Below are positions 21,835-40,177 of a stretch of DNA of 64,000 bases, in pieces (position 1 is the stretch's first letter; each line of letters begins with the position of its first letter). This stretch comes from an uncultured Candidatus Saccharibacteria bacterium (GTDB lineage Bacteria; Patescibacteriota; Minisyncoccia; 2-02-FULL-40-12; GWA2-44-9), in assembly GCA_964444955.1 (NCBI GenBank), contig CAYUJB010000001.1, positions 1,816-65,815 of the forward strand. The letters are read 5' to 3'. A program made the translations under genes and the position numbers. Under the pieces are notes generated by a model that saw only the letters and a list, made by a program, of their open reading frames with translations, searched no databases and was not told the DNA's origin.

Positions 21835-24542
21835 GATTGTGTTGTTTCCTTCCTTAATTTCTGCAAGTCTCCATTCATGTCACTGCGACGACTTTCAAGA
21901 TCTTCGATCCATGCATCTAATCGTTTCTTCATCTTCTTATCGGTAGTTTTGTCTTGCTTTTTTCTGAGCCGTTTGATTCCTTGATTAAATTTCCGATCTT
22001 TTGCCTCTAACTCTTTGATATTTTTTCTTGCCGCTGAGCTTTTGATTTTTATGTTCGCGTACTCGTCTAAAATGCGTAGTTGCTGTTCAGGACTAGATAC
22101 ATTTCGGAGTATCTTCCCGAACTTTTCAGGCTTTTTAAGAGATTCTTTTAGCTTCTTTTGCAATTCATCGGGCATTTTTTCTTTTGTGGTGCCAACGGGC
22201 AGTGCTGCGTTCCTCTTCGCTAGCTCGTCTTCAAAATCGAGGACATCGAGATCGGAAAGAGAATCTGCACGATCTGACATTGCTTCGGCGGTAGTAACTT
22301 TCTTTCCATTTCTATCAGTTATAAGACCCATTCCGGCCATGAGTTCAATAGAAGCTACCTTGCTTCTGCCGTTTTTGGATGTTGCTTCAAGAAATGCTCG
22401 CTGATCCTCCGGGCTTTCCTTCATGAGTTCTGTAAGTTTGGTGAGTTGCGATTGATCAAATTTTGCTTTATTGCCAACTTCACCGCGCATAGCGGCATCC
22501 AAAAATTTGCGCACATCTTCTGGCTTGCCCGCACTTTTTGCTGCAGCGGCAAACTTATCAAATTCGAAATCTCCACTAGTGGGATCGAGATAAGTATCCC
22601 AAGCATTAGCCGAGCCCTTTTGAAGTTGCTCGGTAAGGCGCTTTTGGAATTCTTTGCGTGCGACAGGCGATACATCTCCATATTTCTTCAGAAGTAGTTG
22701 CCGTTCTGGTTCCGAGAGCTTGCCCTGCTTCATAAGTATCTCTCCTGCGGCGAGTGCGGCATCTCGATTACCGCTATTGAATTGCGAGCGCAAGTACGCT
22801 TCCTTCTTATCTTTATCAGTGATCTTGTTTGCCGCCGCCTCGATCATCCCCTTCTGCGCCTCAATACGCTTCTGCGCTAGCTTATCAACTTCGGCATCAG
22901 CACCACGAACACCATACTGCATCTTTTTATAGGCAACCGCTTCTTCCTGTGAACGAAATAGATTTGGCGCTCGTCCCTTGATGTTAGCCCCCATGTCTCC
23001 GAATGTCTGCGCCCCGCTGGCCTTAAGAGCTTCGTATGATGAAGTCATGCCGAGTTTATTCGCTACCGCATTAAATCCAAAGTTCGCCTTCTCCCCTACG
23101 CCAAGAGAGTCCGCGGCACCCCCGACATATTTCTTCAGGGAGTCGCTGAGAGAGAACGCATATTTCCATGCAGCGCCAGCTCCGCCGATAAATATCGAAC
23201 CAGCGAGCATGTAAAAAAGTCCAATACCGAAAACTCCAGCAAATGCCCCGGCATCTTTGAGGCCCGAAAGGAGCGAGTTCTGCTGACTCAAAACAAACAT
23301 TCCGATATAGATTACAAAGAGATAGAGTGGCGAAAAAATATTCCAACCAACCATGTTTCCGAACCACTCTTTATGCACCTTCGAACCGGGTACGCCGATA
23401 CTAAAGAATGCGAGGGCGGATAGTGATAGATAGAACCAGGTTACCGGAATTCGCACCACCATAACCACAACAGCGGTAACAAAAGAAAATGCGAGCACAC
23501 CCAAGAAGAAGTTGTTGATGAATAAGCTCAAGATCTTGAGCGCTTGCTCCGATGGCGAGGCGTGCCCTGCTTCTGTGGGCGGCGGCAATGATTGGGCGCT
23601 AGCCCAGGCTCCTTTTGCTGCTCCACTTAATACGCCAGTTCCAAATACGTAGCCCTCCGCGGCACCCGCTACGCCCCCTTTTGCGTTGTTTATCCAGTAA
23701 TTCCCCGCATCTTTTAACGTATCCCACCAACCAGGAGACGTACTCAGCCGCTGTATTTCCTTGTCGATAGCGGCGCTCGTTATAGGTGCTTGTACGCGCG
23801 CAGCTCCTGCGCTACACGCTGACATATTCTGACCAGATGCAAGGCAGTCTTCAAAATATTTCTTTGGCGCGCCAACATATCCTCTCTTTGCTACAAGTTG
23901 CGCAGGATCGAGTTGGTCATCAGGCACACTTGATAGCGGTGCCGCCACTAATGAAAGTCCATTACTACCTGCTGCGACCTGAAGCAGTTGTCCCTGCACC
24001 AAAACGGTGTCAGCGATGTCGATACTCTTACCATCGAGGCCCTTTCCCGTCATAAGACCTGCAACGAGCGAACTCGCTTGGTTTCCAGCCCAGATAATAA
24101 TCTGACCGATGGGAAGACTGAAATTAATAAGGAGAGCGGCGAGGATGACTCCTTTGAGCGCGCTGCTGTAGTAGTATGCTTTTGCCCCTTTTGGTGCGAT
24201 CGAATTGAAAATGGTGCTAAATGCAATAAGGATAAAGAAAATAATAAAGAGCGAGTTGCATATATCGCGAAATACTTTCCAGACGTTATAGACGGCGGCT
24301 CCTCCGTAATTAATCTCGCTTCCAATAATCCAATTTATTAGTTGTCCTCCCCAGACAATGATTTGAACGATTATGTCATGAACGGTCTCTAGGAGCCCGA
24401 CAAAAAGACCAAGAATATCCGATGCTATCCCGTCGCCGGCTGCGTGCGCAGGTGTCGGAACCAGCACGACGAGCGTCGTAATGATAAGGAGCGCAACGAT
24501 TGTAGAGCGATAGGATTTCATCATTGAACACCTTCGGTACAT
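21831..24542 (-). CDS. large polytopic membrane protein with a Lys/Glu-rich coiled-coil tail (VirB6/TrbL-like candidate)
   Basis: 903 aa. Signal-like N-terminus, two blocks of multiple TM helices, and a C-terminal roughly 350-aa charged helical region (KKMKKRLDAWIEDLESRRSDMNGDLQKLRKE). An alternative start at 24524 is possible. Confidence 0.5.
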   Translation of the reverse strand: MYRRCSMMKSYRSTIVALLIITTLVVLVPTPAHAAGDGIASDILGLFVGLLETVHDIIVQIIVWGGQLINWIIGSEINYGGAAVYNVWKVFRDICNSLFIIFFILIAFSTIFNSIAPKGAKAYYYSSALKGVILAALLINFSLPIGQIIIWAGNQASSLVAGLMTGKGLDGKSIDIADTVLVQGQLLQVAAGSNGLSLVAAPLSSVPDDQLDPAQLVAKRGYVGAPKKYFEDCLASGQNMSACSAGAARVQAPITSAAIDKEIQRLSTSPGWWDTLKDAGNYWINNAKGGVAGAAEGYVFGTGVLSGAAKGAWASAQSLPPPTEAGHASPSEQALKILSLFINNFFLGVLAFSFVTAVVVMVVRIPVTWFYLSLSALAFFSIGVPGSKVHKEWFGNMVGWNIFSPLYLFVIYIGMFVLSQQNSLLSGLKDAGAFAGVFGIGLFYMLAGSIFIGGAGAAWKYAFSLSDSLKKYVGGAADSLGVGEKANFGFNAVANKLGMTSSYEALKASGAQTFGDMGANIKGRAPNLFRSQEEAVAYKKMQYGVRGADAEVDKLAQKRIEAQKGMIEAAANKITDKDKKEAYLRSQFNSGNRDAALAAGEILMKQGKLSEPERQLLLKKYGDVSPVARKEFQKRLTEQLQKGSANAWDTYLDPTSGDFEFDKFAAAAKSAGKPEDVRKFLDAAMRGEVGNKAKFDQSQLTKLTELMKESPEDQRAFLEATSKNGRSKVASIELMAGMGLITDRNGKKVTTAEAMSDRADSLSDLDVLDFEDELAKRNAALPVGTTKEKMPDELQKKLKESLKKPEKFGKILRNVSSPEQQLRILDEYANIKIKSSAARKNIKELEAKDRKFNQGIKRLRKKQDKTTDKKMKKRLDAWIEDLESRRSDMNGDLQKLRKETTQS

Positions 24543-26143
24543 GCTGCGACGGGTGATCCTCCATCTGTACGGACAAACCCATCACCCGTGATGACATCAA
24601 AGGAGGTAGAAATGCCTGAATCACCCAGCACGATTTCATCATCTTGAGCAGGATGTAGATGACATACTCCTGCGCCGATGATGTCGCAGATGGCCTGCAG
24701 CACCAGTCGGAAGTCTACCCCAGGAGCGATCTTGCTAGTTCCGCTCTCAAACAGAGCAGGTTGATTTTGCATGACCGATGCGATCACTTGAGATATCACC
24801 CCCGAGGCAACAGCCCGCGCGGTGGGATCATCTTTCACACAGGTGCAGCGGGCGTCACCGCCAGTGCATGCTGGATCGTTGGGCGATGTCTCTCCTGGCG
24901 CCGGCGTCGGTGTGGGTTCTGGCGTGAAGTTGGCTGGGTCTCGCTCGGGGCCGAGCTCGAGCTTGAATGGTAGTGGAGCGTTGGAGAGGTCGAGAATACG
25001 TGTTTGGATGCGCGCCGCGATATCATCCATGAGTCCGCCATCACCGATGGCTACGGTCATGCGCGAGTAGTAGCCCTCGAGGTCGGACTTGATGATATCG
25101 CGCACGGCGCCTGGGACTTGCTTCATGACACCATCGTCAATACATTTTCCGTCGGGGTCTTTTGAGCACTCACCGCGAGTTCCTGAAAATCCCCCACCCG
25201 CAAGAGCCTCTGTGTAAGCTTCTGCAACGCGCGTGGATTTGAGCGTTTCAAATTCAGCGAGCGCCATAGCCTCAAAGTCGCGCCAGTTATTTTGGGGCTG
25301 CTCCATCAAGGCCAAAAACATGTAGCCACTATTTTTCCCCTCCTGATCAGGATCGGTACTCGTCACATCGAAACTCTCGGGAAGCGTGCATTTTGCGCGT
25401 AACTCGAAGGGCGCCCGCTCATCAGTTCGAAATCCAGCGATAGTAATATTAGGCGGACTGTCGCGATATGATTTCGGCACACCGAGATCGTTGAGCACTT
25501 TGTCTCGAAAGGCGGGGCAGATATCAGTGTTAGCCAAGAGCGCCCACCATTGTCGCTGCGCCAATTCTGCTGGGCGTACATTCAGGAAACGAGACCAGTC
25601 GGTTGCTGCGGCAATTCCCCCATCCAACCCCTGCGTTTGGAGCATAGTCGTCGCAGTTTCTGTGACGATGTTCTGCATGACGGTCGTGGTGCAGTTCACC
25701 AAGAAGTTTGATTTGAGGCGCGCTTTAAATTCAGTTTTCAGCTCTGCCTTTGCATCGGAAATTGGTACTTGCACGCATTCAATGGCAAGCGCTTTCCCAA
25801 CAAGAGGGATTTGTTTAATCAGCCCATTGAGCTTGCACATCGCATTTCCAACGGCAATATTCTTCGTCATCTGAAGGAGATCGTTGATCGTGTCCTGTGC
25901 CCAGTTTTTTACCTGCTGCGCTAGTTGGCCATTAAAAAGATTGAGCAGGTTGCCGCGGCACTCGGAGTATTTTGATCCATTAATCCCCTGCTCTTCAGAG
26001 ATTACTTGTACATCTACACTCGCTGGTCGGCGAATACCTAAGTCATTGAGGCTGATAGCTCGACTCACCGTGCCCACGAGAAGCAAGCCCGTGAAGACGA
26101 GTTCAGCGACGAGTAGTGCGGTTGTTAGACGTGGGAGTTTCAT
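24521..26143 (-). CDS. secreted Cys-rich protein (T4SS-like operon component)
   Basis: 540 aa. N-terminal hydrophobic signal/anchor (LLVAELVFTGLLLVGTV), many cysteines, and a PT-rich linker (PEPTPTPAPGETSP). Confidence 0.45.
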   Translation of the reverse strand: MKLPRLTTALLVAELVFTGLLLVGTVSRAISLNDLGIRRPASVDVQVISEEQGINGSKYSECRGNLLNLFNGQLAQQVKNWAQDTINDLLQMTKNIAVGNAMCKLNGLIKQIPLVGKALAIECVQVPISDAKAELKTEFKARLKSNFLVNCTTTVMQNIVTETATTMLQTQGLDGGIAAATDWSRFLNVRPAELAQRQWWALLANTDICPAFRDKVLNDLGVPKSYRDSPPNITIAGFRTDERAPFELRAKCTLPESFDVTSTDPDQEGKNSGYMFLALMEQPQNNWRDFEAMALAEFETLKSTRVAEAYTEALAGGGFSGTRGECSKDPDGKCIDDGVMKQVPGAVRDIIKSDLEGYYSRMTVAIGDGGLMDDIAARIQTRILDLSNAPLPFKLELGPERDPANFTPEPTPTPAPGETSPNDPACTGGDARCTCVKDDPTARAVASGVISQVIASVMQNQPALFESGTSKIAPGVDFRLVLQAICDIIGAGVCHLHPAQDDEIVLGDSGISTSFDVITGDGFVRTDGGSPVAACTEGVQ

Positions 26144-27060
26144 TTGCTATTGAGTGTTGTAGCCATGCGGTGTTGGAACGCAAGCGTGAGGTCGAGAGGC
26201 GTTTCGGAGGTGAGCGTGTTGAGCACCTGAAGAGATATCACTCCCATAAGTGGGTCACTGGCAATATTTTTTACCGCGCGATAGCGCTGCTGCGTTCCAC
26301 GGAGATACAAAATGAGAGATCGATGGAAATCAACCATGGGTGTCGGTACTCGAATGCTCTTGAGTGTGCGGATACGATCTTCGAACGCTACCGCTTCCGA
26401 ATCGGCAGACGCTACGAACGCTTGGAAGACTGATGGTTGTGTAGTGTTGAGTTTTGGGAGATCGGCCAGCGATGCGTTCCCCGCTGTTGCAAGAAAAGCG
26501 CGGTAGTTAGCACTAATCTCAGTAAACATAGGCGCGAGGATGCTTGCCATCTTGAAGCTGTACGCCATCAAGTTGTCTCTGCTGGTGGACGCGACAGCAA
26601 TCGAGTCTAATTCTGAGGCGACATTGGTGGTGTACTGATTGAATATTTCATCGACGAGGTCATCGACGGAGGTGTTGTAGGTTGGATTTTTCGGATCAAG
26701 GTTGCCGGCAGCCACGCCACCCATCAAGAGTGTTGACGCGCGTTGGGTGAGGTTGCGCTTGTTGTCGAGGAAATCATTCGGGCCGGCTTTGGCGGGATCG
26801 TGGCCGGAGAGCACCTCTTCCCCATCCTTATACCCATCACCATCAGTGTCGGGATTTTTGAAGTCGGTATTCCAGTAGGTCTCGTCGTAGTCGCACAGAC
26901 CGTCACCATCTTGATCGTTGCAGTTCGCTGGCGTGGGGGTGGGTTGCGTGATGCTATCGGAGATGGTGGCAGTGGTGAGTGTTGAGCGGAGAGCGTACCA
27001 AAAAGACAAGCCGGCACCCACGGCCAAAACAGCGAGCAGGAATTTAAGTCTTCCACTCAT
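26140..27060 (-). CDS. secreted protein with thrombospondin-type-3-like Ca-binding Asp repeats
   Basis: Start corrected to ATG 27060 (MSGRLKFLLAVLAVGAGLSF), with a GAGG 7 nt upstream. The ORF-track start at 27081 is a GTG lying inside the promoter. Repeats include DQDGDGLCDYDE and NPDTDGDGYKDGEE. Confidence 0.45.
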   Translation of the reverse strand: MSGRLKFLLAVLAVGAGLSFWYALRSTLTTATISDSITQPTPTPANCNDQDGDGLCDYDETYWNTDFKNPDTDGDGYKDGEEVLSGHDPAKAGPNDFLDNKRNLTQRASTLLMGGVAAGNLDPKNPTYNTSVDDLVDEIFNQYTTNVASELDSIAVASTSRDNLMAYSFKMASILAPMFTEISANYRAFLATAGNASLADLPKLNTTQPSVFQAFVASADSEAVAFEDRIRTLKSIRVPTPMVDFHRSLILYLRGTQQRYRAVKNIASDPLMGVISLQVLNTLTSETPLDLTLAFQHRMATTLNSK

Positions 27061-27071
27061 AGATTGCCTCA

Positions 27072-27080
27072 ATTCTACCA
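27072..27080 (-). promoter_or_regulatory. extended -10 promoter element (TGgTAGAAT) for the T4SS-like operon
   Basis: Minus-strand sequence gtggtagaat lies 12 nt upstream of the ATG at 27060. The same TGgTAGAAT element precedes the tRNA-Ser pair at 38991-39000. Confidence 0.4.
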
Positions 27081-27118
27081 CGTTTGAGGCGCAGAAAATC
27101 TACACTTCGTGTGTATAT

Positions 27119-29843: not shown

Positions 29844-29930
29844 ACTGGCGCTGAGTATAGCAGAAAAACGCTTATAACAAAGAAAAAAAGACGAGCATTG
29901 TTGCTCGTCTTGTCGAGGGGGCCGCCTCCC

Positions 29931-30212
29931 TCACCGCCCGCTCACCTTTTCAAGCGTCTGGCGGATCTCGTGCGGATCCTGTGTGGTGCACACCCGAAAG
30001 TTCATCATCATGATTCCGTCATGATAAGCGGGGCCAGCCCACACGAACACGCACGCCGGCTTCTCCATGCTACTCAGATAGGCCTGGACTGCCCTGAACT
30101 GCTTCCAGTTGAGACTGAGCTCGATCATAGTGTTTTTCACGACGGCTCCTTTTTCTCGAGTTGCTGCTGTTGCGTTGTTGGCGCATCCTGAACCGTCAGG
30201 AGTATGGCCCAC
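29931..30212 (-). CDS. small hypothetical ORF (uncertain)
   Basis: 93 aa ORF with no recognisable motif. It borders the ORF-free structured region and could be non-coding. Confidence 0.2.
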   Translation of the reverse strand: MGHTPDGSGCANNATAATREKGAVVKNTMIELSLNWKQFRAVQAYLSSMEKPACVFVWAGPAYHDGIMMMNFRVCTTQDPHEIRQTLEKVSGR

Positions 30213-30683
30213 CCCGCGATTTTATCGAGTAGTGCTACGGTCTCTTTGTCGCCGGTATGCTTTTTGAGTAGCTCCTGAAGGCTCCGCTCAATAATACTCC
30301 AGGCTTCTTTCTGCGTTTCCACGATGCTTCTACTAAATAATTATGAGTTGTAAAGGTGAATCTCTACAAGGTCTCGAGATAGTCTCAAGAGCTTGAGTGA
30401 GTGGGCGATAATTGGTCACAAGGTATCGCCCCTATCCTCGGGTCTGCGTGCGGGATTACTCCCCCACCAGTTGCCAGAACAACTCCTCCGCCTCCTTCTC
30501 CTTCCCTTCTCTGAAGAGTCGGTTGAAGACTGCATCGAAGTTGCGTCTCGCCTCTTCCGGGAGCGAGACCTGGGGCTCCCGGACGACACGTCCGGTAGTC
30601 CAGCTGTACGCACCAACACGCTCGCCGTCAATCTTGACTAGCTCCATGACACCCTCCTTTAGGGTTGCGGGCGAAATGCCCGA

Positions 30684-30737
30684 TTTCTGTTTCGGCCTGC
30701 TGGCCTCATCAGTCGGAGCGAATACTCCGAGACAGAG
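30684..30737. repeat. 54-nt structured element, copy A
   Basis: ttctgtttcggcctgCtggcctcatcagtcggagcgaatactccgagacagaga. Folds as an outer 10-bp stem (ucuguuucgg/ccgagacaga with one G-U pair) enclosing the hairpins GGCC-ugcu-GGCC and CGGAG-cgaaua-CUCCG. Confidence 0.5.
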
Positions 30738-31099
30738 AGGAAGTTTAAAGAGATTCCTCAGCTCGTATTTTCAGGTTTCCGTTGTAGCGGATTCCCGACT
30801 AACATTGCGATGTGGGTATAACGAACCCTCCATCCAACGCTCTTGCATTAGCTTGACTGCAAGAGAGGCGTGCCGAGGGAAAAGCGTCCCCCGACTTTAG
30901 GCCCTTATAAACTAAACAGAAGTTTATAGCCTACCCGTTCGGATTATGAATGACGTATCACTCATAATATGGGCTCTCCTTCGACGGGAATACCCGATGA
31001 TACGTGCCCCAAGCTGGCACGGGATGGAGTCTCTACAAAGACTCCGGTTGATGCGCGTTTCCCTCGCGGCTGGTGTTCGACACCAGCCGCCATCAACTC

Positions 31100-31153
31100 T
31101 TCTGTTTCGGCCTGTTGGCCTCATCAGTCGGAGCGAATACTCCGAGACAGAGA
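31100..31153. repeat. 54-nt structured element, copy B (53/54 identical to copy A)
   Basis: Direct repeat of copy A, 416 bp downstream, with one C/T difference. Both lie inside the 1.85 kb ORF-free region. Confidence 0.5.
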
Positions 31154-32170
31154 CTGTTAAGGGTGGTCATCCCATCGATTTGTTGACTCGGCCGATACCG
31201 AGCATGCATTTTCTGTTCCCAGGACTGCGATGACACCCCGGCGCGCTGCATTTCAGCAGTCGCAGGATTCGTAGGCGGCCCTTCCATAAAGCAGGGTCTC
31301 GGGGGGCTTCCCAGGCATCTTGCGAGAACACTGACTGCCGTTCAAGCCGGGATTGCTGGATCTCACCCAGCAATGCCCCAAGAGATAGTGCCTTCTCGAA
31401 ATCTGCCTCGAGCGGCGGCTACCCCGGATAAGCTCCTCGGAAGACTTCCAGAACTTCGTGCCTGTCCTAGAGGAATACCCTCCGCGCCTACTAGAGTCGT
31501 TGCCCTGGAGACGCACTTCTTCGGTGCTGCCCTTGCGTCGCACAGTCAACTTTCTAGTATAGTATACTGTTGCCATGTCCCCTCCTAGGGAAAATTGTGC
31601 GGGATTATGCCCGCATCGGAGCGTCCAATAACATTAGGCGCTTTGATGTGGGACCCAGTAGGAAAACTGGGTTGGGGAAGTTTTGTGAGATTCCCCAGCT
31701 CACGGAAGTAGAAGATGAGCGTGACCCCCATTGTGGAATAGCAAGTCCTTCTACTGCCAAAGTTTATGTGAGTTCGGGTTTTTTGTCGGACAGCACGACG
31801 GCATGTCGGACTTTTTAACATTTACCGCGTCTCCCACTCGGGGGGACGGTACCATGTTCCCACTGGGCTATGTAATTATCCCCCTCAAACTTTTCAGCGA
31901 GGAAAGACCCGACCATAGCTTGACTCCCATTTTCGAAGGACTTTGACCTCCGCTTAACTTCAGACATGAGTACTCTTGACTACTTCCAAGAGATCATCTA
32001 TGTCCTCCCACGCTCACTTACCAGTATACGCGTGATTCCATTGACAGAGAAGTATTGACGGTTTCTAATATGTTCTAAGTAAAGAAAATGGCTTAGTACA
32101 AGGTGAATTTATCCACTTTTGTATGTCGAAAAAACTTGACAGATTGGTCTGTTTTTGATAAACTACCCCT

Positions 32171-33007
32171 ATGAACGGTGAAAAAGCACTCGATATTCTC
32201 AAGTTATCCAACAACGAACAGCGGGTACTCCAAGCTGTTCAAGAAGGTTTGGGTACCCCGCTGGCTATTTCGCGCAGTTCAGGTGTTTCCCGAACGACCA
32301 TCTACACTGTACTGGAGAGCCTGAAGGAGCGCGGCCTCGTTAAGTCGACGATTCAGGAGGGACGCAAATCGTGGATTGTCGCTCCTGAACAAGCTATCTC
32401 CGAGGCGACTCGGCATGTTCGTCAGGGGCTATTCACTCAATCCCCCGTCGGGAGAGAGGTTGGTGGCGTCACTGCCACTTCGGACGCCGCGGTAGTTGCC
32501 TACCGTGACGCGCGCGACATCAAGGCGCTTCTCCTTAAGATGCTTTCAGAGCATTCACAGGAAAAACTCTACATCCTCCAGGGCGATACTGCGACAATCG
32601 GGTGGGATAAGATATTCAGCGTTGAGGAGACCAATGCTCTCAATGCTATTATCAAAAAAAACGATATCGTCGTGGAAGCATTTTTACCGCCCGGATGGTT
32701 CGAAAAACATTTTGAACTTCTTGGTAAAGAGTGGGCAACAGAGTTTCATGGTCGTGCTACGCGCGCCAACATTATCCCCGCTGAGTACTTCAAACATGGC
32801 GGTCAAGTTTATGTGTTTAAAGATGCAACCTATTTTCTCGCGCTCCACGATGAGCTCGTTGTTGAGATAAAAAATCCCGATATTCAAAAAGTTATCCTCT
32901 CTTTGTTAGAGTTTCTCCAAGAACATTCCCGGCCTATCGATGTGAACGCTACGCTGCGAAAGTTAGCAGGCATTGGGGAGTACAGAACGAATGATGATAC
33001 AATTTAG
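32171..33007 (+). CDS. winged-HTH transcriptional regulator (TrmB/MarR-like N-terminus) with an uncharacterised C-terminal domain
   Basis: N-terminal LSNNEQRVLQAVQEGLGTPLAISRSSGVSRTTIYTVLESLKERGLV is a typical wHTH. 278 aa. Confidence 0.5.
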   Translation: MNGEKALDILKLSNNEQRVLQAVQEGLGTPLAISRSSGVSRTTIYTVLESLKERGLVKSTIQEGRKSWIVAPEQAISEATRHVRQGLFTQSPVGREVGGVTATSDAAVVAYRDARDIKALLLKMLSEHSQEKLYILQGDTATIGWDKIFSVEETNALNAIIKKNDIVVEAFLPPGWFEKHFELLGKEWATEFHGRATRANIIPAEYFKHGGQVYVFKDATYFLALHDELVVEIKNPDIQKVILSLLEFLQEHSRPIDVNATLRKLAGIGEYRTNDDTI

Positions 33008-33012
33008 GAGTT

Positions 33013-33543
33013 ATGAAGTTGTTTGTAACACGACACGGGATAACCAAAGATAATGAGAACGCTATTATTTCGGGGTGGCGCCCCGGAGAATTAAGCGAGG
33101 TCGGCAAAGCGCAGATGGAGCGTGTTGCCATGCAACTTCGGGACGTCCATATCGATGTAATCTACTCGAGCGACCTTGCTCGATGTCGTGACTCTGTGGC
33201 TATCATCAATACGTTTCACAATGCCCCTGTTGAGTATTTAGAGTTGCTTCGGGAGTTGAGCTCGGGCGAATTCGATGGCCGAGTGGCCGCAGATATGCAG
33301 GCAGCACTACGAGAGCATAAAGGTGAACGTGACCTCTTTGAACCTGAGGGTGGTGAGAGTATGGTCGCGTTTCGTGAGCGTGTTTTGCAATTTCGCACGT
33401 TTCTTGCGAGGGAATCAGAAAAGTTCAAGGATAAAACGATTCTTATCTGTTCGCATAGTACTTGGGTTAGAATATTCCTTGAGCTCGACGAAATGGACCC
33501 CATTGCATTAGAGCTGGTCGAGTATATTGATCCACAAAAATAA
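33013..33543 (+). CDS. histidine phosphatase family protein (phosphoglycerate mutase-like)
   Basis: RHG catalytic motif (LFVTRHGITKDN) and a second His region (ICSHSTWVR). 176 aa. Confidence 0.7.
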   Translation: MKLFVTRHGITKDNENAIISGWRPGELSEVGKAQMERVAMQLRDVHIDVIYSSDLARCRDSVAIINTFHNAPVEYLELLRELSSGEFDGRVAADMQAALREHKGERDLFEPEGGESMVAFRERVLQFRTFLARESEKFKDKTILICSHSTWVRIFLELDEMDPIALELVEYIDPQK

Positions 33544-33572
33544 TAGGCATCGCTAGATACAAGAAATACAGC

Positions 33573-33597
33573 AAAAGCCCCTCTCGGGGCTTTTGCT
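33573..33597 (+). terminator. Rho-independent terminator
   Basis: AAAAGCCCC-TCTC-GGGGCTTTTG immediately after the histidine phosphatase gene. A second long hairpin (acacttggccagccactc...gagtggccaagtgt, 33628-33680) follows and abuts the 3' end of the minus-strand tRNA-Ala. Confidence 0.55.
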
Positions 33598-33680
33598 GGC
33601 GGTAGTCCTGCGCGCCTATGCGCTTGAGGACACTTGGCCAGCCACTCTCTTATGAATGCAGAATAAGGAGTGGCCAAGTG

Positions 33681-33751
33681 TGGACCTGGGGAGAATCGAA
33701 CTCCCGCCTCAGCAATGCGAATGCCGTGTAATGCCACTTTACTACAGGCCC
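33681..33751 (-). tRNA. tRNA-Ala (anticodon CGC), CCA not encoded
   Basis: Hand-folded cloverleaf. Acceptor GGGCCUG/CAGGUCC with the G3:U70 Ala identity pair. D-stem GTAA/TTAC. Anticodon stem CGGCA/TGCTG with loop TTCGCAT. T-arm GGGAG-TTCGATT-CTCCC. Confidence 0.8.
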
Positions 33752-33856
33752 GAAACTTCAAGAAAATACCACAAAACTGGCGTTTCTGCTAGTGCGGTAA
33801 GGATTTGGCTCCTGCTGCGTCTTACGTAGTGTAACAACTTCATATATACTCCTCAC

Positions 33857-34459
33857 ATGAACAAACACCTCGTAGCCATCGTAACCCTCGGTGCAGTGAT
33901 GGGCGGTTCGGTAATGCCAGCGCTTGCCAAGGAAGGTTCCGGAATGTCTCGCGCATCATTTAAAGAAGTTCGCCAAGAACGACAGGATCAGCGTGAGATG
34001 AACGGCATTAAGAATCAAGCCAATCGCGACGCACTCCGCACCACCCTCGATGCCAAGCGTGCACAGCAGAGCAAGGATCGCGTCTCGAAGTTTTGGAGCA
34101 AATCGTCCGCACAGCTTCAGAAGTTGATCGATCGTGAAACGAAAATGTCGGCAAAAATTGCCGAGCGCCTCGCGAAGTTCAAGGCAGCCGGCAAGAATAC
34201 GTCCAGCCAAGAGGCATTGCTCGCGACCGCGAACGCATCGATAGCAACTGCGCAAACTGCCCTCACGAATGCACGTGTAACTATCCAGGCGATGATTACC
34301 GCCAATGCGTCACCAGCTGATATTACCGCGAAGACGCGCGAACTCCATAAGGATGTCACCACGAAGATTCGCGCTGCGCACAAGGCGCTTGTCGATGTGA
34401 TTGTTGCTACACGTGGCATGTCTGCAACAGCGACGCCCTCGGTAACCCCTACGCCGTAA
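33857..34459 (+). CDS. secreted all-helical protein (hypothetical)
   Basis: Signal peptide MNKHLVAIVTLGAVMGGSVMPALA, then a Lys/Ala/Gln-rich helical region and a PT tail. Sits upstream of the ECF sigma factor gene. Confidence 0.4.
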   Translation: MNKHLVAIVTLGAVMGGSVMPALAKEGSGMSRASFKEVRQERQDQREMNGIKNQANRDALRTTLDAKRAQQSKDRVSKFWSKSSAQLQKLIDRETKMSAKIAERLAKFKAAGKNTSSQEALLATANASIATAQTALTNARVTIQAMITANASPADITAKTRELHKDVTTKIRAAHKALVDVIVATRGMSATATPSVTPTP

Positions 34460-34465
34460 GCACGT

Positions 34466-34963
34466 ATGACAGAAACTGTGGAAGAGCGGTTCGTATCGGC
34501 CTATGATCAGCATGGCGACGCCATCTTCCGTTTCTGTTACGCACAAACCGGGCGACGTGAGCTTGCGCTCGATCTGACGCAAGACACGTTTGCCCGGGTG
34601 TGGCGCCACCTCGTACAAGGCAAGACAATCACTGATATACGTCCCTTTCTCTATACGACGGCTCGTCACGCCATCATCGACAATGCTCGACGTGGATCAG
34701 CTCAATCGCTGGATGCACTGCGTGAAGAAGGATTTGATGTAGTCGATGAACGTGCAGCTGATCCCCTACTGTCGGCTTCCGCAACTCACGCGCTCCGCGT
34801 GCTCGGCAAACTTGAGCCGATGTATCGCGAAGCAGTCACGCTTCGCTACGTCGACGATCTGATGCCGCGAGAGATTGCTGGGATCACCGGTGAAAACGAA
34901 AACACTATTTCAGTACGCATCACCCGCGGCCTCACACAGCTCAAAGAACTTCTCCACCTATGA
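34466..34963 (+). CDS. ECF-type RNA polymerase sigma-70 factor
   Basis: 165 aa. Sigma region 2 (FRFCYAQTGRRELALDLTQDTFARVW) and region 4 HTH (REAVTLRYVDDLMPREIAGITGENENTISVRITRG). Confidence 0.8.
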   Translation: MTETVEERFVSAYDQHGDAIFRFCYAQTGRRELALDLTQDTFARVWRHLVQGKTITDIRPFLYTTARHAIIDNARRGSAQSLDALREEGFDVVDERAADPLLSASATHALRVLGKLEPMYREAVTLRYVDDLMPREIAGITGENENTISVRITRGLTQLKELLHL

Positions 34964-35481
34964 CAAACCCCGAAAACAATCTAGCTGAACTTCGCACCGT
35001 TGCACTCACCGACAGTGAACGCAGTGCTATGCGCCAGCAACTCCGCGCGTTTACTTCTCCGCATATCGCCTCTCGCGCTCCGTCCTTTTTTGCTCGCCAC
35101 AGCGCCCTGGCATTGGGTATGGCGGTGATACTCATCGGTGGCGTCACAAGCGTCTCGGCAAACTCAGCAAATCCTGGCGATGCACTGTATGGATTTCGTA
35201 CTCACGTGAATGATCGGGTACAAACCGCATTAACTCTTGATGATGAGCGGCGCCTTGATGTTGAGCTCGAGCAAATCCAACGCATGATTGACGGAGAAGA
35301 TTCGTATCGTATGGATGAATTGAGTGTCTCCGCCGACGACGAAACCGATGCCGTCGAAACCGAAGATCGCGAAGATACTCCCGATGAAACCATAGAAGGC
35401 GCGGATGATTTTGATCGTGAGCTCAAAGGTATTGAGCACGATCTCAACGTCGAGTCAGACTCCGGTATCGAGCTGGAATAA
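34960..35481 (+). CDS. putative anti-sigma factor (single TM, acidic C-terminus)
   Basis: Start overlaps the sigma factor stop as ATGA. One TM helix (ALALGMAVILIGGVTSV) and a very acidic extracytoplasmic tail. Assignment is positional inference. Confidence 0.4.
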   Translation: MTNPENNLAELRTVALTDSERSAMRQQLRAFTSPHIASRAPSFFARHSALALGMAVILIGGVTSVSANSANPGDALYGFRTHVNDRVQTALTLDDERRLDVELEQIQRMIDGEDSYRMDELSVSADDETDAVETEDREDTPDETIEGADDFDRELKGIEHDLNVESDSGIELE

Positions 35482-35485
35482 AGGA

Positions 35486-36226
35486 CTATCCTTTTAGGAT
35501 TCCAAGTTTGTTTTCAAGGGATTGTTGAGGATAGAGGTCTGATGGATAAAGCTCGATGAGTGCAATCTTATAAGCTTGGCAGATTTCCTGTTTCTTTTTC
35601 ACTGAGTGATCGTAGCGCGGACTATCTTTCGCGAGACCGAAGTACTCGATGAATGTGTCCCCTACACGCCAATCAGCCCGATGCTTTGTGGTGGGGTAGC
35701 GGGCATCTCTTTCGTGAGGAATGTCATGCTGAGTAAGCCAATTATCTATTAGTGCCTCGGATATGGAATCGCAGATATGTCCATCGCGCGCCTTTGTTTT
35801 TGTTCGGCGATACATCTGACTATCGTGAGAGCGATTTGGTAGGAGACCTACTTCTTGCAGAAGAGCATTCCACGAACCATACTCACGGATTGCAGCGTAC
35901 GAAATACTTCCGAGTTCTCGACGGGAAGGAGTCCTCTTGAGAGTCTCCGAAAGCTTCTTTACTTCATTTATTATTTGCAGGGAAGTGTATTTTTGTTTTC
36001 CGAGTTCTCGACATGCAACTGAACAAAAAATACTCTTCGCGGTCTTACGAAATGTAATCCCGCAGGAGGCGCAAGTCTTTTCAGGCGCGGGTCTTTTGGG
36101 GTAGCGTTTGTTGTTAACGCTAGCTGAACACGAGCGTGAGCAATAATTGTGGAGTGAAATTGCAGAATCGGGACGTAAAAATGTCTTCCCACAGCTCGCA
36201 TTTTCACACGTGAGCATTTGATTCAT
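35486..36226 (-). CDS. zinc-ribbon protein with an uncharacterised C-terminal domain (hypothetical)
   Basis: Three CxxC/CxxxC pairs in the first 75 aa (CENASCGKTF...CSRSC, CASCGITF...CSVAC). The C-terminus has a DSISEALIDNW...ADWRVGDTFIEYFG pattern, possibly nuclease-like. Embedded among tRNA genes. Confidence 0.4.
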   Translation of the reverse strand: MNQMLTCENASCGKTFLRPDSAISLHNYCSRSCSASVNNKRYPKRPAPEKTCASCGITFRKTAKSIFCSVACRELGKQKYTSLQIINEVKKLSETLKRTPSRRELGSISYAAIREYGSWNALLQEVGLLPNRSHDSQMYRRTKTKARDGHICDSISEALIDNWLTQHDIPHERDARYPTTKHRADWRVGDTFIEYFGLAKDSPRYDHSVKKKQEICQAYKIALIELYPSDLYPQQSLENKLGILKG

Positions 36227-36232
36227 AAATTG

Positions 36233-36304
36233 TCAGGCTGCCGGGATTTGAACCCGGAGTCTCACCGACCCGAACGGTGCGTGTTACCGTTACACTACAG
36301 CCTG
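36233..36304 (-). tRNA. tRNA-Pro (anticodon CGG), CCA not encoded
   Basis: Acceptor CAGGCUG/CAGCCUG with C1:G72 as in bacterial tRNA-Pro. D-arm GTGT-AACGGTA-ACAC. Anticodon stem CACCG/CGGTG with loop TTCGGGT (G37). T-arm CCGGG-TTCAAAT-CCCGG. Confidence 0.8.
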
Positions 36305-36435
36305 TTGTATCTGCACAGTATACTGCATTTTACTTGATATTACTAGCATTCTAAGCTCCAGCAGCGCGAGCGCGATTATAAAAAAAACCGAGCACTTCAG
36401 TGCTCGGTTTGGCGTTACTAATTTCTTCCGTCCAG

Positions 36436-37872
36436 CTATACGTAGTATTTTTTCATACGCTCCTGCTCCTCGTCGTCGAGGGCTTTTTTAATGCGCTCAA
36501 GGGCGGTCGCCAGCTCCTCTGGCGTCTTGGCGTCGAGTTTTTTGGCGCGAGCTAAGAGCGTCTCTTTTTCGTTGAGCGTGGGATCGTCGAGCACTTCTGC
36601 CAGCAGCGAGCTCAGGATTAGTCCGAGTTTGGGGCCAGGCGGCATCGCCAGTGCTTCCATAATGTCTTTGCCGTCCACCTTGAGCATCTTCACCGAGATG
36701 GCGTCGTGGCTCACTTTGTCGATCATGTACTTGAGGTGGCGGAGCTTGTACGGTACGGCCTTGGGTGTGCCAGAGCCAATGCGATCCCCTTCTCGCAGTC
36801 GCAACAGGTCGTCGATATTTTCGAGACCAACGTTGGCGATGAGGCGGCGCACGGATGATTCGGTGACTTCACCGACGCTGTAGTAGAACATATGGTAGCG
36901 CACTAAGAGCGCGACTTTATCGCTCAGGTCTTTGGGAAACTTCAGTCGCTCCATGATTTTCTTGGTCATCGTGCCACCGACGGCATCATGCGCATAAAAA
37001 GTGCAGTGACGTCCCTCGCCCCGCTTGGTGCGAGGTTTACCCACATCGTGGAGCAGACACGCCATGCGAACAGCAAACGAGTATTTCTTGTCGGCCGCGT
37101 ACTTCATGGTGCGCAAGTTGTGTTCCCAGACGGAATAGATGTGGTGGAGGTTTTGCTCAACGCCCAATCCTTCGCGCAGTTCAGGGAGAATGTATTTGAG
37201 CAAACCGACATCTTCGAGCAATTGGATGCCCTCGAATGCGCGCGGTGCATCGATAATTTTAATGAGCTCATCGCGCACGCGCTCAATAGAAATTTCCTTG
37301 AGCGCATCGGCATGGGCGATGAGCGCCTTGAGTGTCGCGTCTTCGATGGTGAAATCAAGCGACGTCGCAAACCGCACTGCGCGCATCATGCGCAGCGCAT
37401 CTTCGCCAAATCGTTCCGTTGCTTCCCCTACCGCGCGCAGGGTGCGCGCCTCGATATCGCGCTGCCCGCCATAGGGATCAACGATATCCCCATTACTTCG
37501 TGCCGCGATGGCGTTGACGGTGAAATCGCGGCGCGACAAATCTTCTTCGACGGTCTTTGCAAAGGTAATTGAGTCGGGGTGCCGTTTGTCGGTGTAGCCT
37601 CCTTCGGTACGAAACGGTGTTACCTGCACGGTGCGCACGATAGGGTCATCATCACGCGTCTTGATAGTGACTGTACCGAACGCATTGTCATAGAAATGAT
37701 CAGGAAAGAGCTCCTGGATTTTTTCTGGTGCTGCACCGGTGGTGATATCCCAATCGGTGGGGTGGCGACCCATCAACATGTCGCGCACGCATCCGCCTAC
37801 TATATAGGAAGGGTATCCCGCGTCTTCGAGCGTTTGCAATATCCCGCTTACTTTCGGATGAATTTCTAGCAT
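36436..37872 (-). CDS. cca: CCA-adding tRNA nucleotidyltransferase with an HD domain
   Basis: Pol-beta head YIVGGCVRDMLMGRHPTDWDITT, an HD motif (LLHDVGK), and a C-terminal tRNA-binding region. Confidence 0.8.
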   Translation of the reverse strand: MLEIHPKVSGILQTLEDAGYPSYIVGGCVRDMLMGRHPTDWDITTGAAPEKIQELFPDHFYDNAFGTVTIKTRDDDPIVRTVQVTPFRTEGGYTDKRHPDSITFAKTVEEDLSRRDFTVNAIAARSNGDIVDPYGGQRDIEARTLRAVGEATERFGEDALRMMRAVRFATSLDFTIEDATLKALIAHADALKEISIERVRDELIKIIDAPRAFEGIQLLEDVGLLKYILPELREGLGVEQNLHHIYSVWEHNLRTMKYAADKKYSFAVRMACLLHDVGKPRTKRGEGRHCTFYAHDAVGGTMTKKIMERLKFPKDLSDKVALLVRYHMFYYSVGEVTESSVRRLIANVGLENIDDLLRLREGDRIGSGTPKAVPYKLRHLKYMIDKVSHDAISVKMLKVDGKDIMEALAMPPGPKLGLILSSLLAEVLDDPTLNEKETLLARAKKLDAKTPEELATALERIKKALDDEEQERMKKYYV

Positions 37873-37877
37873 TCGTG

Positions 37878-37952
37878 TGGTGCCCCCGAAAGGAATCGAA
37901 CCTCCATCGTACCCTTAGGACGGGTCTGCTCTATCCGTTGAGCTACGGGGGC
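37878..37952 (-). tRNA. tRNA-Arg (anticodon CCU), CCA encoded
   Basis: Acceptor GCCCCCG/CGGGGGC plus discriminator A and CCA. D-arm GCTC-AACGGATA-GAGC. Anticodon loop GTCCTAA. The anticodon stem has one G27-A43 mismatch. The T-stem GGAGG/CCTTT has two G-U pairs. Confidence 0.65.
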
Positions 37953-38095
37953 GACGGATTACCAAATACCTTGCTAGAGTACCCTTTTTATGATATTTTT
38001 TCAAACGCATTCATTACGAAATGGGCCCATATGAATACATATAGGGCCCGGCGCTCACATCCATAAGATTTAGACAATCTTCTGTATGCTCACTT

Positions 38096-38169
38096 GGGCC
38101 CATAGTGAAGCGGTATCACGCATCCATGGCATGGATGAAGTCGGGGTTCGACTCCCCGTGGGTCCACCA
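38096..38169 (+). tRNA. tRNA-Ala (anticodon GGC), CCA encoded
   Basis: Acceptor GGGCCCA/UGGGUCC with G3:U70. D-arm GTGA-AGCGGTA-TCAC. Anticodon stem CATCC/GGATG with loop ATGGCAT. T-arm CGGGG-TTCGACT-CCCCG. Confidence 0.8.
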
Positions 38170-38218
38170 ACACACAAACGCTCCGCATCGCGCGGAGCGT
38201 TTGTGATATACTCTTGGT

Positions 38219-38950
38219 ATGGATGAAGAGAAGAAGGGTTCAATGAATCTCCCGGAATCGAAGTTGCCCCTGGAGAATGAGATGAAGGATATGCCACTCG
38301 ACTTTCGTTCCAGTTTTCACTGGCGTGTTTTTCGTATCATGGCGGAGTTTGTCGATGGATGGCAGTTTATCACCGACTATAAGAACACGGTCTCTATCCT
38401 CGGTTCAGCCCGTTTTACCGAAGAGAATAAATGGTACCAGGTAGCGCGTGAGTTAGGCGGCTTACTGGCAAAACAGAAAATTGGTGTCGTCACTGGCGGC
38501 GGGCCAGGCATCATGGAGGGCGGCAATCGCGGCGCCTATGAAGCCGGTGGCGAAAGCATCGGCATCACCATTCGCCTCCCCTTCGAGCAGCGCACCAACG
38601 CCTACATCACCAAGAGCCAACCATTCTACTATTTCTTTGTGCGCAAAGTGATGCTCTACTACACCGCGCAGGCGTACGTGTTTTTCCCTGGTGGATTTGG
38701 CACTCTCGATGAATTTTTTGAGCTGGTCACACTGGTGCAGACACACAAGGTAGACCGTGGCTCAGTGCCGATCATTCTGGTGGGCAAGGATTTTTGGGCT
38801 CCCCTGCTCGCCTTCATCAACGACACCGTTTTAGAAAAATATAAAACGATCGATAAAGATGATATGGCGATCTACCACCTCGTCGATACCGCGCAAGAAG
38901 CATTCGATATCATCGCGAAGTACCCGCCTCGCAAGGAGATCTATTACTAG
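38219..38950 (+). CDS. LOG family protein (cytokinin riboside 5'-monophosphate phosphoribohydrolase-like, TIGR00730-type)
   Basis: GGGPGIMEGGNRGA and PGGFGTLDEFFE motifs. The true start may be an internal Met (MNLPESK or MKDMPLD). Confidence 0.75.
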   Translation: MDEEKKGSMNLPESKLPLENEMKDMPLDFRSSFHWRVFRIMAEFVDGWQFITDYKNTVSILGSARFTEENKWYQVARELGGLLAKQKIGVVTGGGPGIMEGGNRGAYEAGGESIGITIRLPFEQRTNAYITKSQPFYYFFVRKVMLYYTAQAYVFFPGGFGTLDEFFELVTLVQTHKVDRGSVPIILVGKDFWAPLLAFINDTVLEKYKTIDKDDMAIYHLVDTAQEAFDIIAKYPPRKEIYY

Positions 38951-38971
38951 TTTCTCGTTCGTCCCAACTAT

Positions 38972-39000
38972 TTGATAAAAGCCGCCAAAAGTGGTAGAAT
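38972..39000 (+). promoter_or_regulatory. promoter for the tRNA-Ser pair (-35 TTGATA, 17-bp spacer, extended -10 TGgTAGAAT)
   Basis: TTGATA at 38972-38977 and TAGAAT at 38995-39000 preceded by TGG. The first tRNA starts at 39012. Confidence 0.45.
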
Positions 39001-39011
39001 TTGCGGCTGAA

Positions 39012-39098
39012 GGAAGCGTGGCTGAGTGGTTGAAGGCACCACACTCGAAATGTGGCATGGGGGTAACCCCATCGGAGGTTCGAATCCTCCCGCTTCCG
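39012..39098 (+). tRNA. tRNA-Ser (anticodon CGA), long variable arm
   Basis: GGAAGCG...CGCUUCC acceptor with discriminator G. Anticodon stem CCACA/TGTGG with loop CTCGAAA. 18-nt variable arm CATGGGGGTAACCCCATC. T-arm GGAGG-TTCGAAT-CCTCC. Confidence 0.8.
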
Positions 39099-39104
39099 CA
39101 GGTA

Positions 39105-39191
39105 GGTGGGGTGGCCGAGTGGTTGAAGGCACCGCTCTTGAAAAGCGGCATACGGGTAACCGTATCGTGAGTTCGAATCTCACCCCCACCG
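39105..39191 (+). tRNA. tRNA-Ser (anticodon UGA), long variable arm
   Basis: GGTGGGG/CCCCACC acceptor with discriminator G. Anticodon stem CCGCT/AGCGG with loop CTTGAAA. Variable arm CATACGGGTAACCGTATC. T-arm GTGAG-TTCGAAT-CTCAC. Confidence 0.8.
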
Positions 39192-39218
39192 CAGTGAAAT
39201 TGGTGTATACTTGCCGAT

Positions 39219-39842: not shown

Positions 39843-39998
39843 CGCACTCGGTAGGACGCTCGCTCCGCTCTCAGTAAAGCGGTTGTGCTCTCGGTATGCG
39901 GACATACCGAGCGACCTCGCTCGAAAGCAAAAGGAACGCGACGCGTTCCTTTTGCTTCACTCACTCAGTGCTCTCGGTAGGACGCTCGCTCCGCTCGC
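39843..39998. repeat. direct repeats derived from the 3' end of tRNA-Arg(GCG), plus palindromic hairpins
   Basis: Copy C3 (39966-39996) shares gtgctctcggtagga with the tRNA 3' end at 40176-40190, and shares ctcggtaggacgctcgctccgctc with copy C1 (39846-39870). A partial copy at 39884 (gtgctctcggta) runs into the palindrome CTCGGTATG-cgga-CATACCGAG. Confidence 0.5.
39929..39953. terminator. bidirectional intrinsic terminator hairpin
   Basis: AAAAGGAACGCG-a-CGCGTTCCTTTT: a perfect 8-bp GC-rich stem flanked by an A-run and a T-run. Confidence 0.5.
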
Positions 39999-40170: not shown

Positions 40171-40177
40171 TACCTGT

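Follow-up and report, generated by a model that had tools for sequence, protein, structure and literature searches.

The window analysed here is a 64,000-nt stretch from an uncultured Candidatus Saccharibacteria bacterium (contig CAYUJB010000001.1, positions 1,816 to 65,815 of the forward strand), and its element of interest is a pair of 54-nt direct repeats at about 31 kb. The repeats lay in a minus-strand unit with the order promoter-like motif, 440-nt leader, open reading frame (ORF) ORF107, hammerhead ribozyme (HHR) HHR-B, 360-nt interval, HHR-A, ORF63-ORF61-ORF69, terminator and uvrD. Judged by core and fold, both repeats are self-cleaving ribozymes of the type III hammerhead class (RF00008, clan CL00010) on the minus strand, with cleavage predicted, and the interval between them probably encodes a structured non-coding RNA, here called W-RNA, that the two ribozymes would release from a longer transcript. 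The features central to this interpretation were:

31099 to 31153, minus strand: HHR-B, type III hammerhead, copy B of an earlier sequence-only reading (RF00008, 46.3 bits, E 1.2e-8, full model 1-54)
30684 to 30738, minus strand: HHR-A, the second hammerhead copy, copy A of that reading (RF00008, 44.4 bits, E 4.2e-8)
30739 to 31098, minus strand: W-RNA, a putative non-coding structured RNA of ~360 nt with about ten hairpins
30943 to 30968, minus strand: W-RNA hairpin 4, AUUAUGAGUGA-UACG-UCAUUCAUAAU, its best-supported helix
30731 to 31145, minus strand: predicted 415-nt excision product, with a predicted 5'-OH at 31145 and 2',3'-cyclic phosphate at 30731

The repeats are a pair of type III hammerheads

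Exactly two copies of the 54-mer were found in the window (30685-30738 and 31100-31153), identical at 53 of 54 positions and spaced 415 nt from start to start, and none of 100 shuffled windows matched it. The sole mismatch, 30700 C versus 31115 T, falls in the stem II loop. The sequence-only reading had already recognised the two near-identical direct copies, though it set copy A 1 nt too low and gave the spacing as 416 nt and the interval as 362 nt (correctly 361 nt). It was right that each copy forms a closed three-helix unit, but it read the plus strand, whereas the functional fold lies on the minus strand. The 10-bp outer stem with two inner hairpins that it drew is the RNAfold result for the plus strand of copy A (-23.9 kcal/mol, z -2.5) and a mirror image of the functional fold: the inner hairpins are hammerhead stems I and II on the minus strand, and half of the outer stem is the complement of catalytic-core nucleotides. 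Because the element was read on the wrong strand, its CUGAUGA...GAAA core was missed. The exclusion of a CRISPR array was sound, as there are two copies only, separated by 361 nt rather than at least three regularly spaced repeats with 25-50-nt spacers, and Rfam gave no CRISPR family match in the window.

On the minus strand the copies read UCUCUGUC-UCGGAG-UAUUCG-CUCCGA-CUGAUGA-GGCC-ARCA-GGCC-GAAA-CAGAA, which holds the hammerhead pattern GUC | ... CUGAUGA G...C GAAA C. HHR-B resolves into the stem III 5' strand UCUCUG, the GUC triplet, stem I UCGGAG(U)/(G)CUCCGA, the core CUGAUGA, stem II GGCC-AACA-GGCC, GAAA and the stem III 3' strand CAGA; HHR-A departs from it in the stem II loop alone (AGCA vs AACA). 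The invariant core was complete in both copies (C3 U4 G5 A6 N7 G8 A9, G12 A13 A14, A15.1-U16.1 and a non-G nucleotide at the cleavage site), the G10.1-C11.1 and A15.1-U16.1 pairs were present in both, and all core columns were matched in the cmscan alignment. In the minimum free energy (MFE) fold of the minus strand of copy A, stems I, II and III comprised 7, 4 and 5 bp, respectively, the first two closed by loops and the third open, as in type III hammerheads; loop sizes of 4-6 nt and 4 nt are typical for hammerheads. A permissive Rfam scan, a check that the sequence-only reading had proposed, returned RF00008 for both copies on the minus strand only, with whole-window E-values of 5.7e-7 (HHR-B) and 1.9e-6 (HHR-A). 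The predicted cuts fall at 31146|31145 in HHR-B and 30731|30730 in HHR-A on the minus strand. Hammerhead cleavage leaves a 5'-OH and a 2',3'-cyclic phosphate.

Across 16 related hammerheads, namely the two of the window and 14 others, the three stems showed strong covariation. In their alignment 89.6% of cells were paired, compared to 64.4% after shuffling (the observed value was reached in 0 of 500 shuffles) and 35-42% in slid registers; stems I and II were 96-98% paired, and both-sided changes occurred in 13 of the 18 hammerhead pairs. A covariance model made from these 16 gave HHR-B 69.7 bits, a score that is high by construction. The sequence-only reading had named uniqueness to this locus and a lack of compensatory conservation as what would count against its proposals, and neither was the case: related loci carry homologous hammerheads with compensatory stem changes. 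Given the ribozyme identity, its suggestion of small RNA copies or a protein-binding motif is superfluous.

The structured RNA between the ribozymes

W-RNA gave MFE z scores of -6.8 and -6.05 in two runs. Control regions (ORF107, ORF61-69, uvrD and ksgA) ranged from -1.2 to +1.3, ORF63 gave -2.1, and hammerhead-bounded coding intervals in comparator contigs were mostly between -1.5 and -2.9, with one at -4.75. No Rfam family and no ARAGORN tRNA matched W-RNA, and CRISPR, tRNA-like, riboswitch, RNase P and intron identities for the interior were rejected on these grounds. Its terminal hairpin, GAGGAA-UCUCUUUAAAC-UUCCUC (30765-30743), adjoins HHR-A. A paralogue of this hairpin, GGGGAA-UCUCACAAAAC-UUCCCC (31676-31701, minus strand), with a compensatory A-U to G-C change, is found in the leader, where no hammerhead follows it.

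Comparison with the version in the closest relative strain (L091/L092/L093 plus L098) yielded 32 differing alignment columns, mostly in the 5' 170 nt. The RNAalifold consensus had 108 pairs with two double changes, four single wobble-compatible changes and none broken, while projecting each MFE fold onto the other sequence broke 10 pairs, most of them in the wholly replaced hairpin 1. In the relative, hairpin 4 reads AUCAUGCAGCGA-UACG-UCGCUACAUGAU: two U-A pairs are replaced by C-G through changes on both sides, one G.U pair is G-C, and a 1-nt insertion sits symmetrically in each arm. An RNA-level reading of this covariation is supported but thin. It is highly improbable, to our mind, that the hairpins act instead as DNA (protein-binding palindromes or an origin-like element) with the flanking hammerheads incidental. 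True, perfect Watson-Crick palindromes make up most of the helices and fold as well on one strand as on the other (plus-strand z -5.8), the compensatory changes look the same from both strands, and the two strands came out almost level in the control (alifold -118 for the minus and -109 kcal/mol for the plus strand). Yet single-sided G.U-compatible changes numbered four on the minus strand versus one on the plus strand, the region is part of a ribozyme-bounded transcription unit, and ribozymes act in RNA alone, and the surrounding island holds no replication or recombination gene.

The interior contains ORFs of 43-44 and 66 amino acids, which might suggest an ordinary phage-type cluster around a small or decayed protein gene, the interior having no RNA function of its own. 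Comparator contigs with similar spacing (L085 and L086) do hold 95-109-aa ORFs between their hammerheads, and in viral contig L083 every hammerhead precedes a gene. We nevertheless regard this as very unlikely for the window. None of the interior ORFs is conserved in the relative strain, where the 43-aa ORF is shortened to 20 aa and a 13-aa micro-ORF to 7 aa, and the changes in hairpin 4 destroy the overlapping micro-ORF while its arms change symmetrically. The interior ORFs also lack a ribosome-binding site (RBS), a strong 11-bp hairpin covers codons 2-10, and the interior z score is far beyond that of most coding intervals. Very structured gene-free stretches also lie beside the hammerheads of two related loci, L090 (z -5.8) and L087 (z -10.9).

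The predicted excision product runs from 46 nt of HHR-B through W-RNA to the 5' strand of HHR-A stem III (8 nt). Folded as a linear molecule (-168.5 kcal/mol, z -7.39), it is branched rather than rod-like and has its termini paired as stem III: the HHR-A-derived 5' strand at its 3' end pairs with the stem III 3' strand of HHR-B, which would rebuild a complete nicked hammerhead. The product could in principle be end-ligated, by hammerhead self-ligation or an RtcB-type ligase, into a retrozyme- or viroid-like circle with one intact hammerhead. This would add to, and is compatible with, release of a linear RNA, and the ingredients are in place: two same-sense type III hammerheads would yield exactly the 5'-OH and 2',3'-cyclic phosphate required, the predicted fold of the excised termini is ligation-competent, and the circular fold is still very stable (z -6.0). 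The possibility was already raised for clustered bacterial hammerheads (PMC3088659, section 6), although circular products of such clusters were sought there and none found. We consider a circle unlikely here. The relative strain and all outgroups have one hammerhead, so the ancestral form of the RNA was not circularisable by a double hammerhead, and the RNA folds into a branched shape, not a rod.

Related loci link the hammerhead to a TrmB-like regulator

Divergent from the minus-strand unit lies a gene for a TrmB-like winged-helix regulator, whose homologues fell into five clusters (P0001-P0005), with loci obtained for all. Four of the five more distant regulator-homologue loci (L087, L088, L089 and L090; 43-49% regulator identity) carried one type III hammerhead each, on the strand divergent from the regulator and scoring 44-46 bits in Rfam; the fifth, L094, had none within its 2.1 kb. 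We ran the covariance model built from the 16 ribozymes over 1.0 Mb of sequence (the window and 91 loci). It matched only in L087-L090, the window, L096 and L098, the best other score being 17 bits, and no hammerhead was found in ~0.9 Mb from 80 control loci. Since hammerheads were found only in regulator-type loci, the window, L096 and L098, the association between hammerhead and regulator is specific. All TrmB-type loci had the promoter-like motif TGTCAA-N12-TATACT conserved upstream of their hammerhead units.

Closer relatives differed in the number of ribozymes. In L091, L092 and L093 (TrmB 91% identical at the protein level) the divergent region was common with the window up to 32020, and seven nt after TATACT the sequence continued as AGTTGATG..., the first bases of W-RNA. 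Locus L098, from the same sample as L091 and with a 13-nt overlap with L092, continued through the 3' part of W-RNA at 98.7% identity and then through a single hammerhead 100% identical to HHR-B, a different 5' untranslated region and an ORF63 homologue. The single hammerhead of L096 was likewise 100% identical to HHR-B, and in both loci the hammerhead was followed by ORF62, the ORF63 homologue (49% amino-acid identity between ORF63 and ORF62 of L098). Relative to these strains, ~920 nt are additional in the window, made up of leader, ORF107 and HHR-B, and their right edge coincides exactly with the 3' edge of the ribozyme module. As the closest strain has the promoter-like motif, W-RNA and one hammerhead, HHR-B probably came with this ~920-nt insertion, and because the outgroups each carry one hammerhead, the ancestral number was probably one. 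Several independent assemblies (L001, L002 and L095) had the two-hammerhead haplotype. The sequence-only reading had offered three identities for the repeats. Terminal direct repeats of a small non-autonomous element do not fit, as the closest relative strain holds the same interior RNA with one hammerhead only, and there was neither a target-site duplication nor any further copy in the window; the evidence matches its remaining proposal, that they are boundaries of a putative non-coding RNA.

W-RNA itself had no sequence similarity to the non-coding stretches of L087, L089, L090 and L094; the only similarity in that comparison was the 26-nt hairpin paralogue in the leader of the window. A short motif, YUGUAGAGA, recurs in or near hairpin loops of W-RNA (31030-31036), of the ORF63-ORF61 spacer (30361-30367, minus strand) and of the RNA preceding the L087 hammerhead (~2746-2752, minus strand). 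Its occurrence in the spacer was conserved in L096-L099, and a related GUAGAGACUCAA was common to L092 and L090. The structured stretch of L087 spans 787 nt without genes directly 3' of the hammerhead (1768-2554, minus strand) and includes, 60 nt past the ribozyme, a tRNA-like sequence that ARAGORN called tRNA-Arg tcg (2420-2493) and that scored 36 bits, below threshold, against Rfam tRNA-Sec. Adjoining the hammerheads of L087 (2610-2680, minus strand) and L089 (5485-5560 and ~5700-5770, minus strand) is a conserved ~70-nt motif, ...GGAGUUYGGCAACCUCCAAAUAAAGUUGCC, whose loop GGCAAC could pair with the downstream GUUGCC as a possible H-type pseudoknot; the second L089 copy has no ribozyme. Non-coding sequence 64-86% identical between loci was also found in L089 (4718-5057), L090 (173-380) and L094 (1-470, minus strand), 3' of the ORF that follows the hammerhead position (ORF112 in L089 and L090, ORF164 in L094), and includes the hairpin GGUAGAUACGCUUAGACUACC.

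The 54-nt module in different contexts

Among close strains, the identical 54-nt block TCTCTGTC...GAAACAGAA occurred in three 5' contexts (the ORF107 trailer, W-RNA and, in L096, an L090-type RNA) and in three different 3' contexts, with breakpoints exactly at the block edges. The RNA before the block in L096 is homologous to the pre-hammerhead RNA of L090, with a compensatory change in the hairpin directly adjoining the block. A hairpin adjoins the 5' strand of stem III in every type (the window, L090/L096 and L087/L089), which fits a protected 3' end on the upstream cleavage product. Identity between the window and the relative was patchy from segment to segment (TrmB 83%, RNA 5' part 82%, RNA 3' part plus hammerhead 98.4%, ORF63 63.5%, ORF61 98.4%), indicating recombination.

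These contexts and the patchy identities (63-98%) raise the possibility, which we hold only tentatively, that the hammerhead is a portable junction for cassette exchange by recombination, its duplication being a by-product of stacking two hammerhead-ended cassettes. Ordinary homologous recombination or selection on a conserved block would also be expected to place breakpoints at the edges, the contexts come from a handful of contigs, and no recombinase, target-site duplication or att-like repeat was found at the locus. Such a junction would concern the origin of the arrangement rather than its function and is compatible with transcript processing. We think it improbable that the double hammerhead turns an ancestrally linear, ribozyme-terminated RNA into a 415-nt closed circle, with the 54-nt hammerhead possibly serving as a point where RNA cassettes and gene cassettes under a TrmB-like regulator are shuffled in the candidate phyla radiation (CPR).

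The transcription unit and its genomic island

The remaining features of the locus were:

32023 to 32046, minus strand: promoter-like motif TGTCAA-N12-TATACT, read in the sequence, with a presumed promoter role
31577 to 32019, minus strand: leader within the inserted segment; homology to L091/L092 breaks off at 32020 and is regained at ~31097; contains the hairpin paralogue (31701-31676)
31253 to 31576, minus strand: ORF107, an Arg/Ser-rich, very basic orphan ORF with a strong RBS, upstream of HHR-B
30456 to 30647, minus strand: ORF63, the first gene 3' of HHR-A, with RBS AAGGAGG
29931 to 30322, minus strand: ORF61 and ORF69, the last two genes of the unit, with a 4-nt overlap; the terminator at 29911-29888 follows
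32171 to 33007, plus strand: TrmB-like winged-helix regulator (Pfam PF01978), divergently transcribed
33013 to 33543, plus strand: histidine phosphatase gene in the island, divergent from the minus-strand unit
29844 to 33679, no strand assigned: strain-variable island of 3.8 kb between the 3' end of tRNA-Ala(cgc) and the uvrD start codon, holding the whole unit

The two same-strand hammerheads lie 415 nt apart with no minus-strand terminator between them, and minus-strand ORFs with RBSs flank the pair on both sides. Between 29.7 and 33.8 kb the only minus-strand terminator-like sites were 33598-33569, after tRNA-Ala, and 29911-29888. From the 3' end of HHR-A, 37 nt lead to the ORF63 start codon and hold a small hairpin (30667-30681) and AAGGAGG. 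This hairpin resembles a 19-nt direct repeat (plus-strand sequence GTGCGGGATTA..CCC.CA) that occurs upstream of the ORF107 RBS (31597-31615) and over the ORF63 stop (30448-30466). An exhaustive search with ORF107 among 1.84 billion representatives returned only itself. The ORF may have arisen as a gene very recently, or may not be one at all. Pfam and PHROGs gave nothing significant for ORF107 or the other small ORFs, and a search with the concatenated ORF63, ORF61 and ORF69 proteins found no homologues.

The closest uvrD-anchored loci, from GTDB genomes of Candidatus Saccharibacteria, had UvrD identities of 89%, 87%, 79% and 77%. At the tRNA-Ala(cgc)/uvrD junction L003 carried no cargo (uvrD starts 2 nt after an identical tRNA), L006 ~490 nt, L005 ~750 nt, and L004 a 380-aa ORF and a 256-aa histidine-phosphatase-like gene. 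Because L003 lacks an insert and L004, L005 and L006 have other, shorter contents, we regard 29844-33679 as a variable island at this junction. Across 80 uvrD-anchored loci of GTDB relatives there were none of the island genes and no hammerhead. The island had no integrase or recombinase, its borders shared no k-mer of at least 10 nt (no att-like repeat), and it held no PHROG structural or lysogeny genes; its neighbours are uvrD, ksgA and tRNAs. A phage context was likewise absent from the searches made: there was no DNA similarity to 50,697 phage records and none for the regulator protein, phage and plasmid collections contained no BLAST match to the hammerhead unit, the complete transcription unit or the regulator, and in viral contigs a near-exact hammerhead pattern, a tandem pattern and three interior or relative RNA motifs gave no matches.

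Beyond the island, seven tRNA genes (Ala x2, Pro, Arg x2, Ser x2) occupy 6.6 kb on both strands (33680-40248), among them two neighbouring tRNA-Ser genes at 39012-39192. On its other side, a minus-strand run of large ORFs (18555-27081) encodes a 584-aa HerA/TraG-type P-loop ATPase that also matches a PHROG terminase family, 903-aa and 540-aa proteins without a Pfam or PHROG match, and a protein of 313 aa that carries a bacterial TSP3 repeat; the run may be a secretion, pilus or transfer module.

Proposed processing of a double-hammerhead transcript

We consider it likely that the locus is a double-hammerhead transcript whose processing releases a non-coding RNA; the ribozymes, fold and architecture are read from the sequence, and from them we infer transcription and cleavage in vivo. 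Both hammerheads would lie in one transcript that starts at the promoter-like motif divergent from the TrmB-like gene and ends at the terminator before uvrD. Folding co-transcriptionally, each ribozyme would cut after GUC (31146/31145 and 30731/30730), giving a leader-ORF107 RNA, the densely paired 415-nt non-coding RNA, which would carry a 5'-hydroxyl and end in a 2',3'-cyclic phosphate, and an ORF63-ORF61-ORF69 mRNA that opens with a 5'-hydroxyl and then the stable hairpins of stems I and II. The products would have hairpin-protected 2',3'-cyclic-phosphate 3' ends and hairpin-led 5'-hydroxyl 5' ends, which may stabilise them. Ancestrally, the structured RNA probably carried a single hammerhead at its 3' end. 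Here the ~920-nt segment, carrying leader, ORF107 and a second 54-nt module, has come to lie between the promoter-like motif and the structured RNA, so that HHR-B would give this RNA a defined 5' end again. Polycistronic processing has previously been proposed as a role for clustered bacterial hammerheads (PMC3088659, section 6; PMC6765202, section 13), and its extension to non-coding cargo is the best-supported reading of this locus.

Several observations weigh against this interpretation. Both ribozymes fall 2-4 bits short of the RF00008 gathering score of 48.5 bits, an operational cut-off rather than a biochemical requirement, mainly because the stem II loop is short (4 nt) and stem III has only 5 bp; for this reason the default, gathering-mode Rfam scan of the window reported no hammerhead. 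The phage hammerheads of L083 and L084 likewise scored 39-47 bits against RF00008. W-RNA is known in two distinct versions only, with thin covariation and a weak strand control, and the version of the relative has less structure (z -3.6). Recent recombination may explain the 98% identity of the RNA 3' part, because ORF61 is equally conserved. That the 920-nt difference is an insertion and not a deletion rests on outgroups with one hammerhead each. A sigma-70 scan did not call a minus-strand promoter, and no cleavage-dependent change in accessibility of the ORF63 RBS was predicted. The start of L095, a Logan contig 100% identical to the window, at 30730 was rejected as a sign of in vivo cleavage: as the copies differ only at 30700, 31-mers unique to copy A begin at 30730, and the contig end is an assembly artefact from a break in the k=31 graph.

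The hammerhead class and hammerhead clustering are already known. What is new is the host group, as far as the literature searched goes, a non-coding cargo bracketed by two copies, and a conserved link to a TrmB-like regulator with a one-versus-two-ribozyme polymorphism. Canonical hammerheads are thereby placed in Saccharibacteria chromosomes, and unusually structured unclassified RNAs are flagged in the window, L087 and L090. Closely related strains with the same structured RNA and one or two hammerheads provide a natural comparison, and related lineages retain a hammerhead beside a homologous regulator while the neighbouring RNAs and ORFs vary. The polymorphism makes it testable whether hammerheads set the ends of the non-coding RNA and insulate adjacent cistrons. 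Were the RNA circular, it would be a chromosome-encoded bacterial hammerhead circular RNA, a prokaryotic counterpart of retrozymes and viroid-like RNAs that dispenses with reverse transcription.

Comparison with known systems

The window copies share with the type III hammerheads of RF00008 the complete CUGAUGA/GAAA core, the GUC triplet, capped stems I and II, an open stem III and covarying stems. They differ in scoring 2-4 bits under the gathering score and in residing on a Saccharibacteria (CPR) chromosome; in the literature searched, we found no paper linking hammerheads with Saccharibacteria or Patescibacteria.

Retrozymes and viroid-like RNAs (PMC4918200, PMC7761336) show the same direct-repeat pair of type III hammerheads around a structured non-coding RNA of a few hundred nt, and the same rebuilding of one hammerhead across the excised ends, here predicted. 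Their repeats are long terminal repeats of ~350 bp, whereas the repeat here is the 54-nt ribozyme itself, with identity that stops exactly at the module. The primer-binding site, polypurine tract, target duplication and many copies of retrozymes were absent from this single bacterial locus, which had no copies in related loci and a relative strain with one ribozyme. The hepatitis delta virus-like theta ribozymes found beside phage tRNAs (PMC10879173) are alike in that a small self-cleaving ribozyme defines the end of a structured non-coding RNA and not of an mRNA, but they are of another ribozyme class and have other cargo; a tRNA-like sequence occurs 60 nt past the hammerhead in L087 and not in the window.

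The gene-flanking hammerhead clusters of prophages and other bacterial genomes (Perreault et al. 2011, PMC3088659) are likewise same-strand paralogous hammerheads a few hundred nt apart in one polycistronic unit. As there, and as for the hammerheads of L083 and L085, HHR-A lies just upstream of a small gene. A scan of metagenomes for tandem hammerheads gave two matches, L085 and L086, both classic gene-flanking clusters unrelated to W-RNA. The L086 pair (397-866, minus strand) has a GUA cleavage triplet and flanks a 95-aa ORF, and ~190 nt from it lies a match to the CRISPR repeat RF01315 (188-217, plus strand; 41.7 bits, above the gathering score). The IMG/VR viral contigs L083 (689-2044, plus strand) and L084 (334-388, minus strand) carry type III hammerheads, three of them in a row in L083 before a phage ATPase and an HNH endonuclease, and their stem I loop UGUGUG and sequence resemble those of L087 and L089, which hints at exchange between phages and these bacterial loci. 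In the window, by comparison, there is no phage or prophage context, and the hammerheads do not flank a gene: only HHR-A precedes one, and the interval is structured RNA that appears to be non-coding. The module here also differs from those clusters in being tied to a TrmB-like regulator across lineages.

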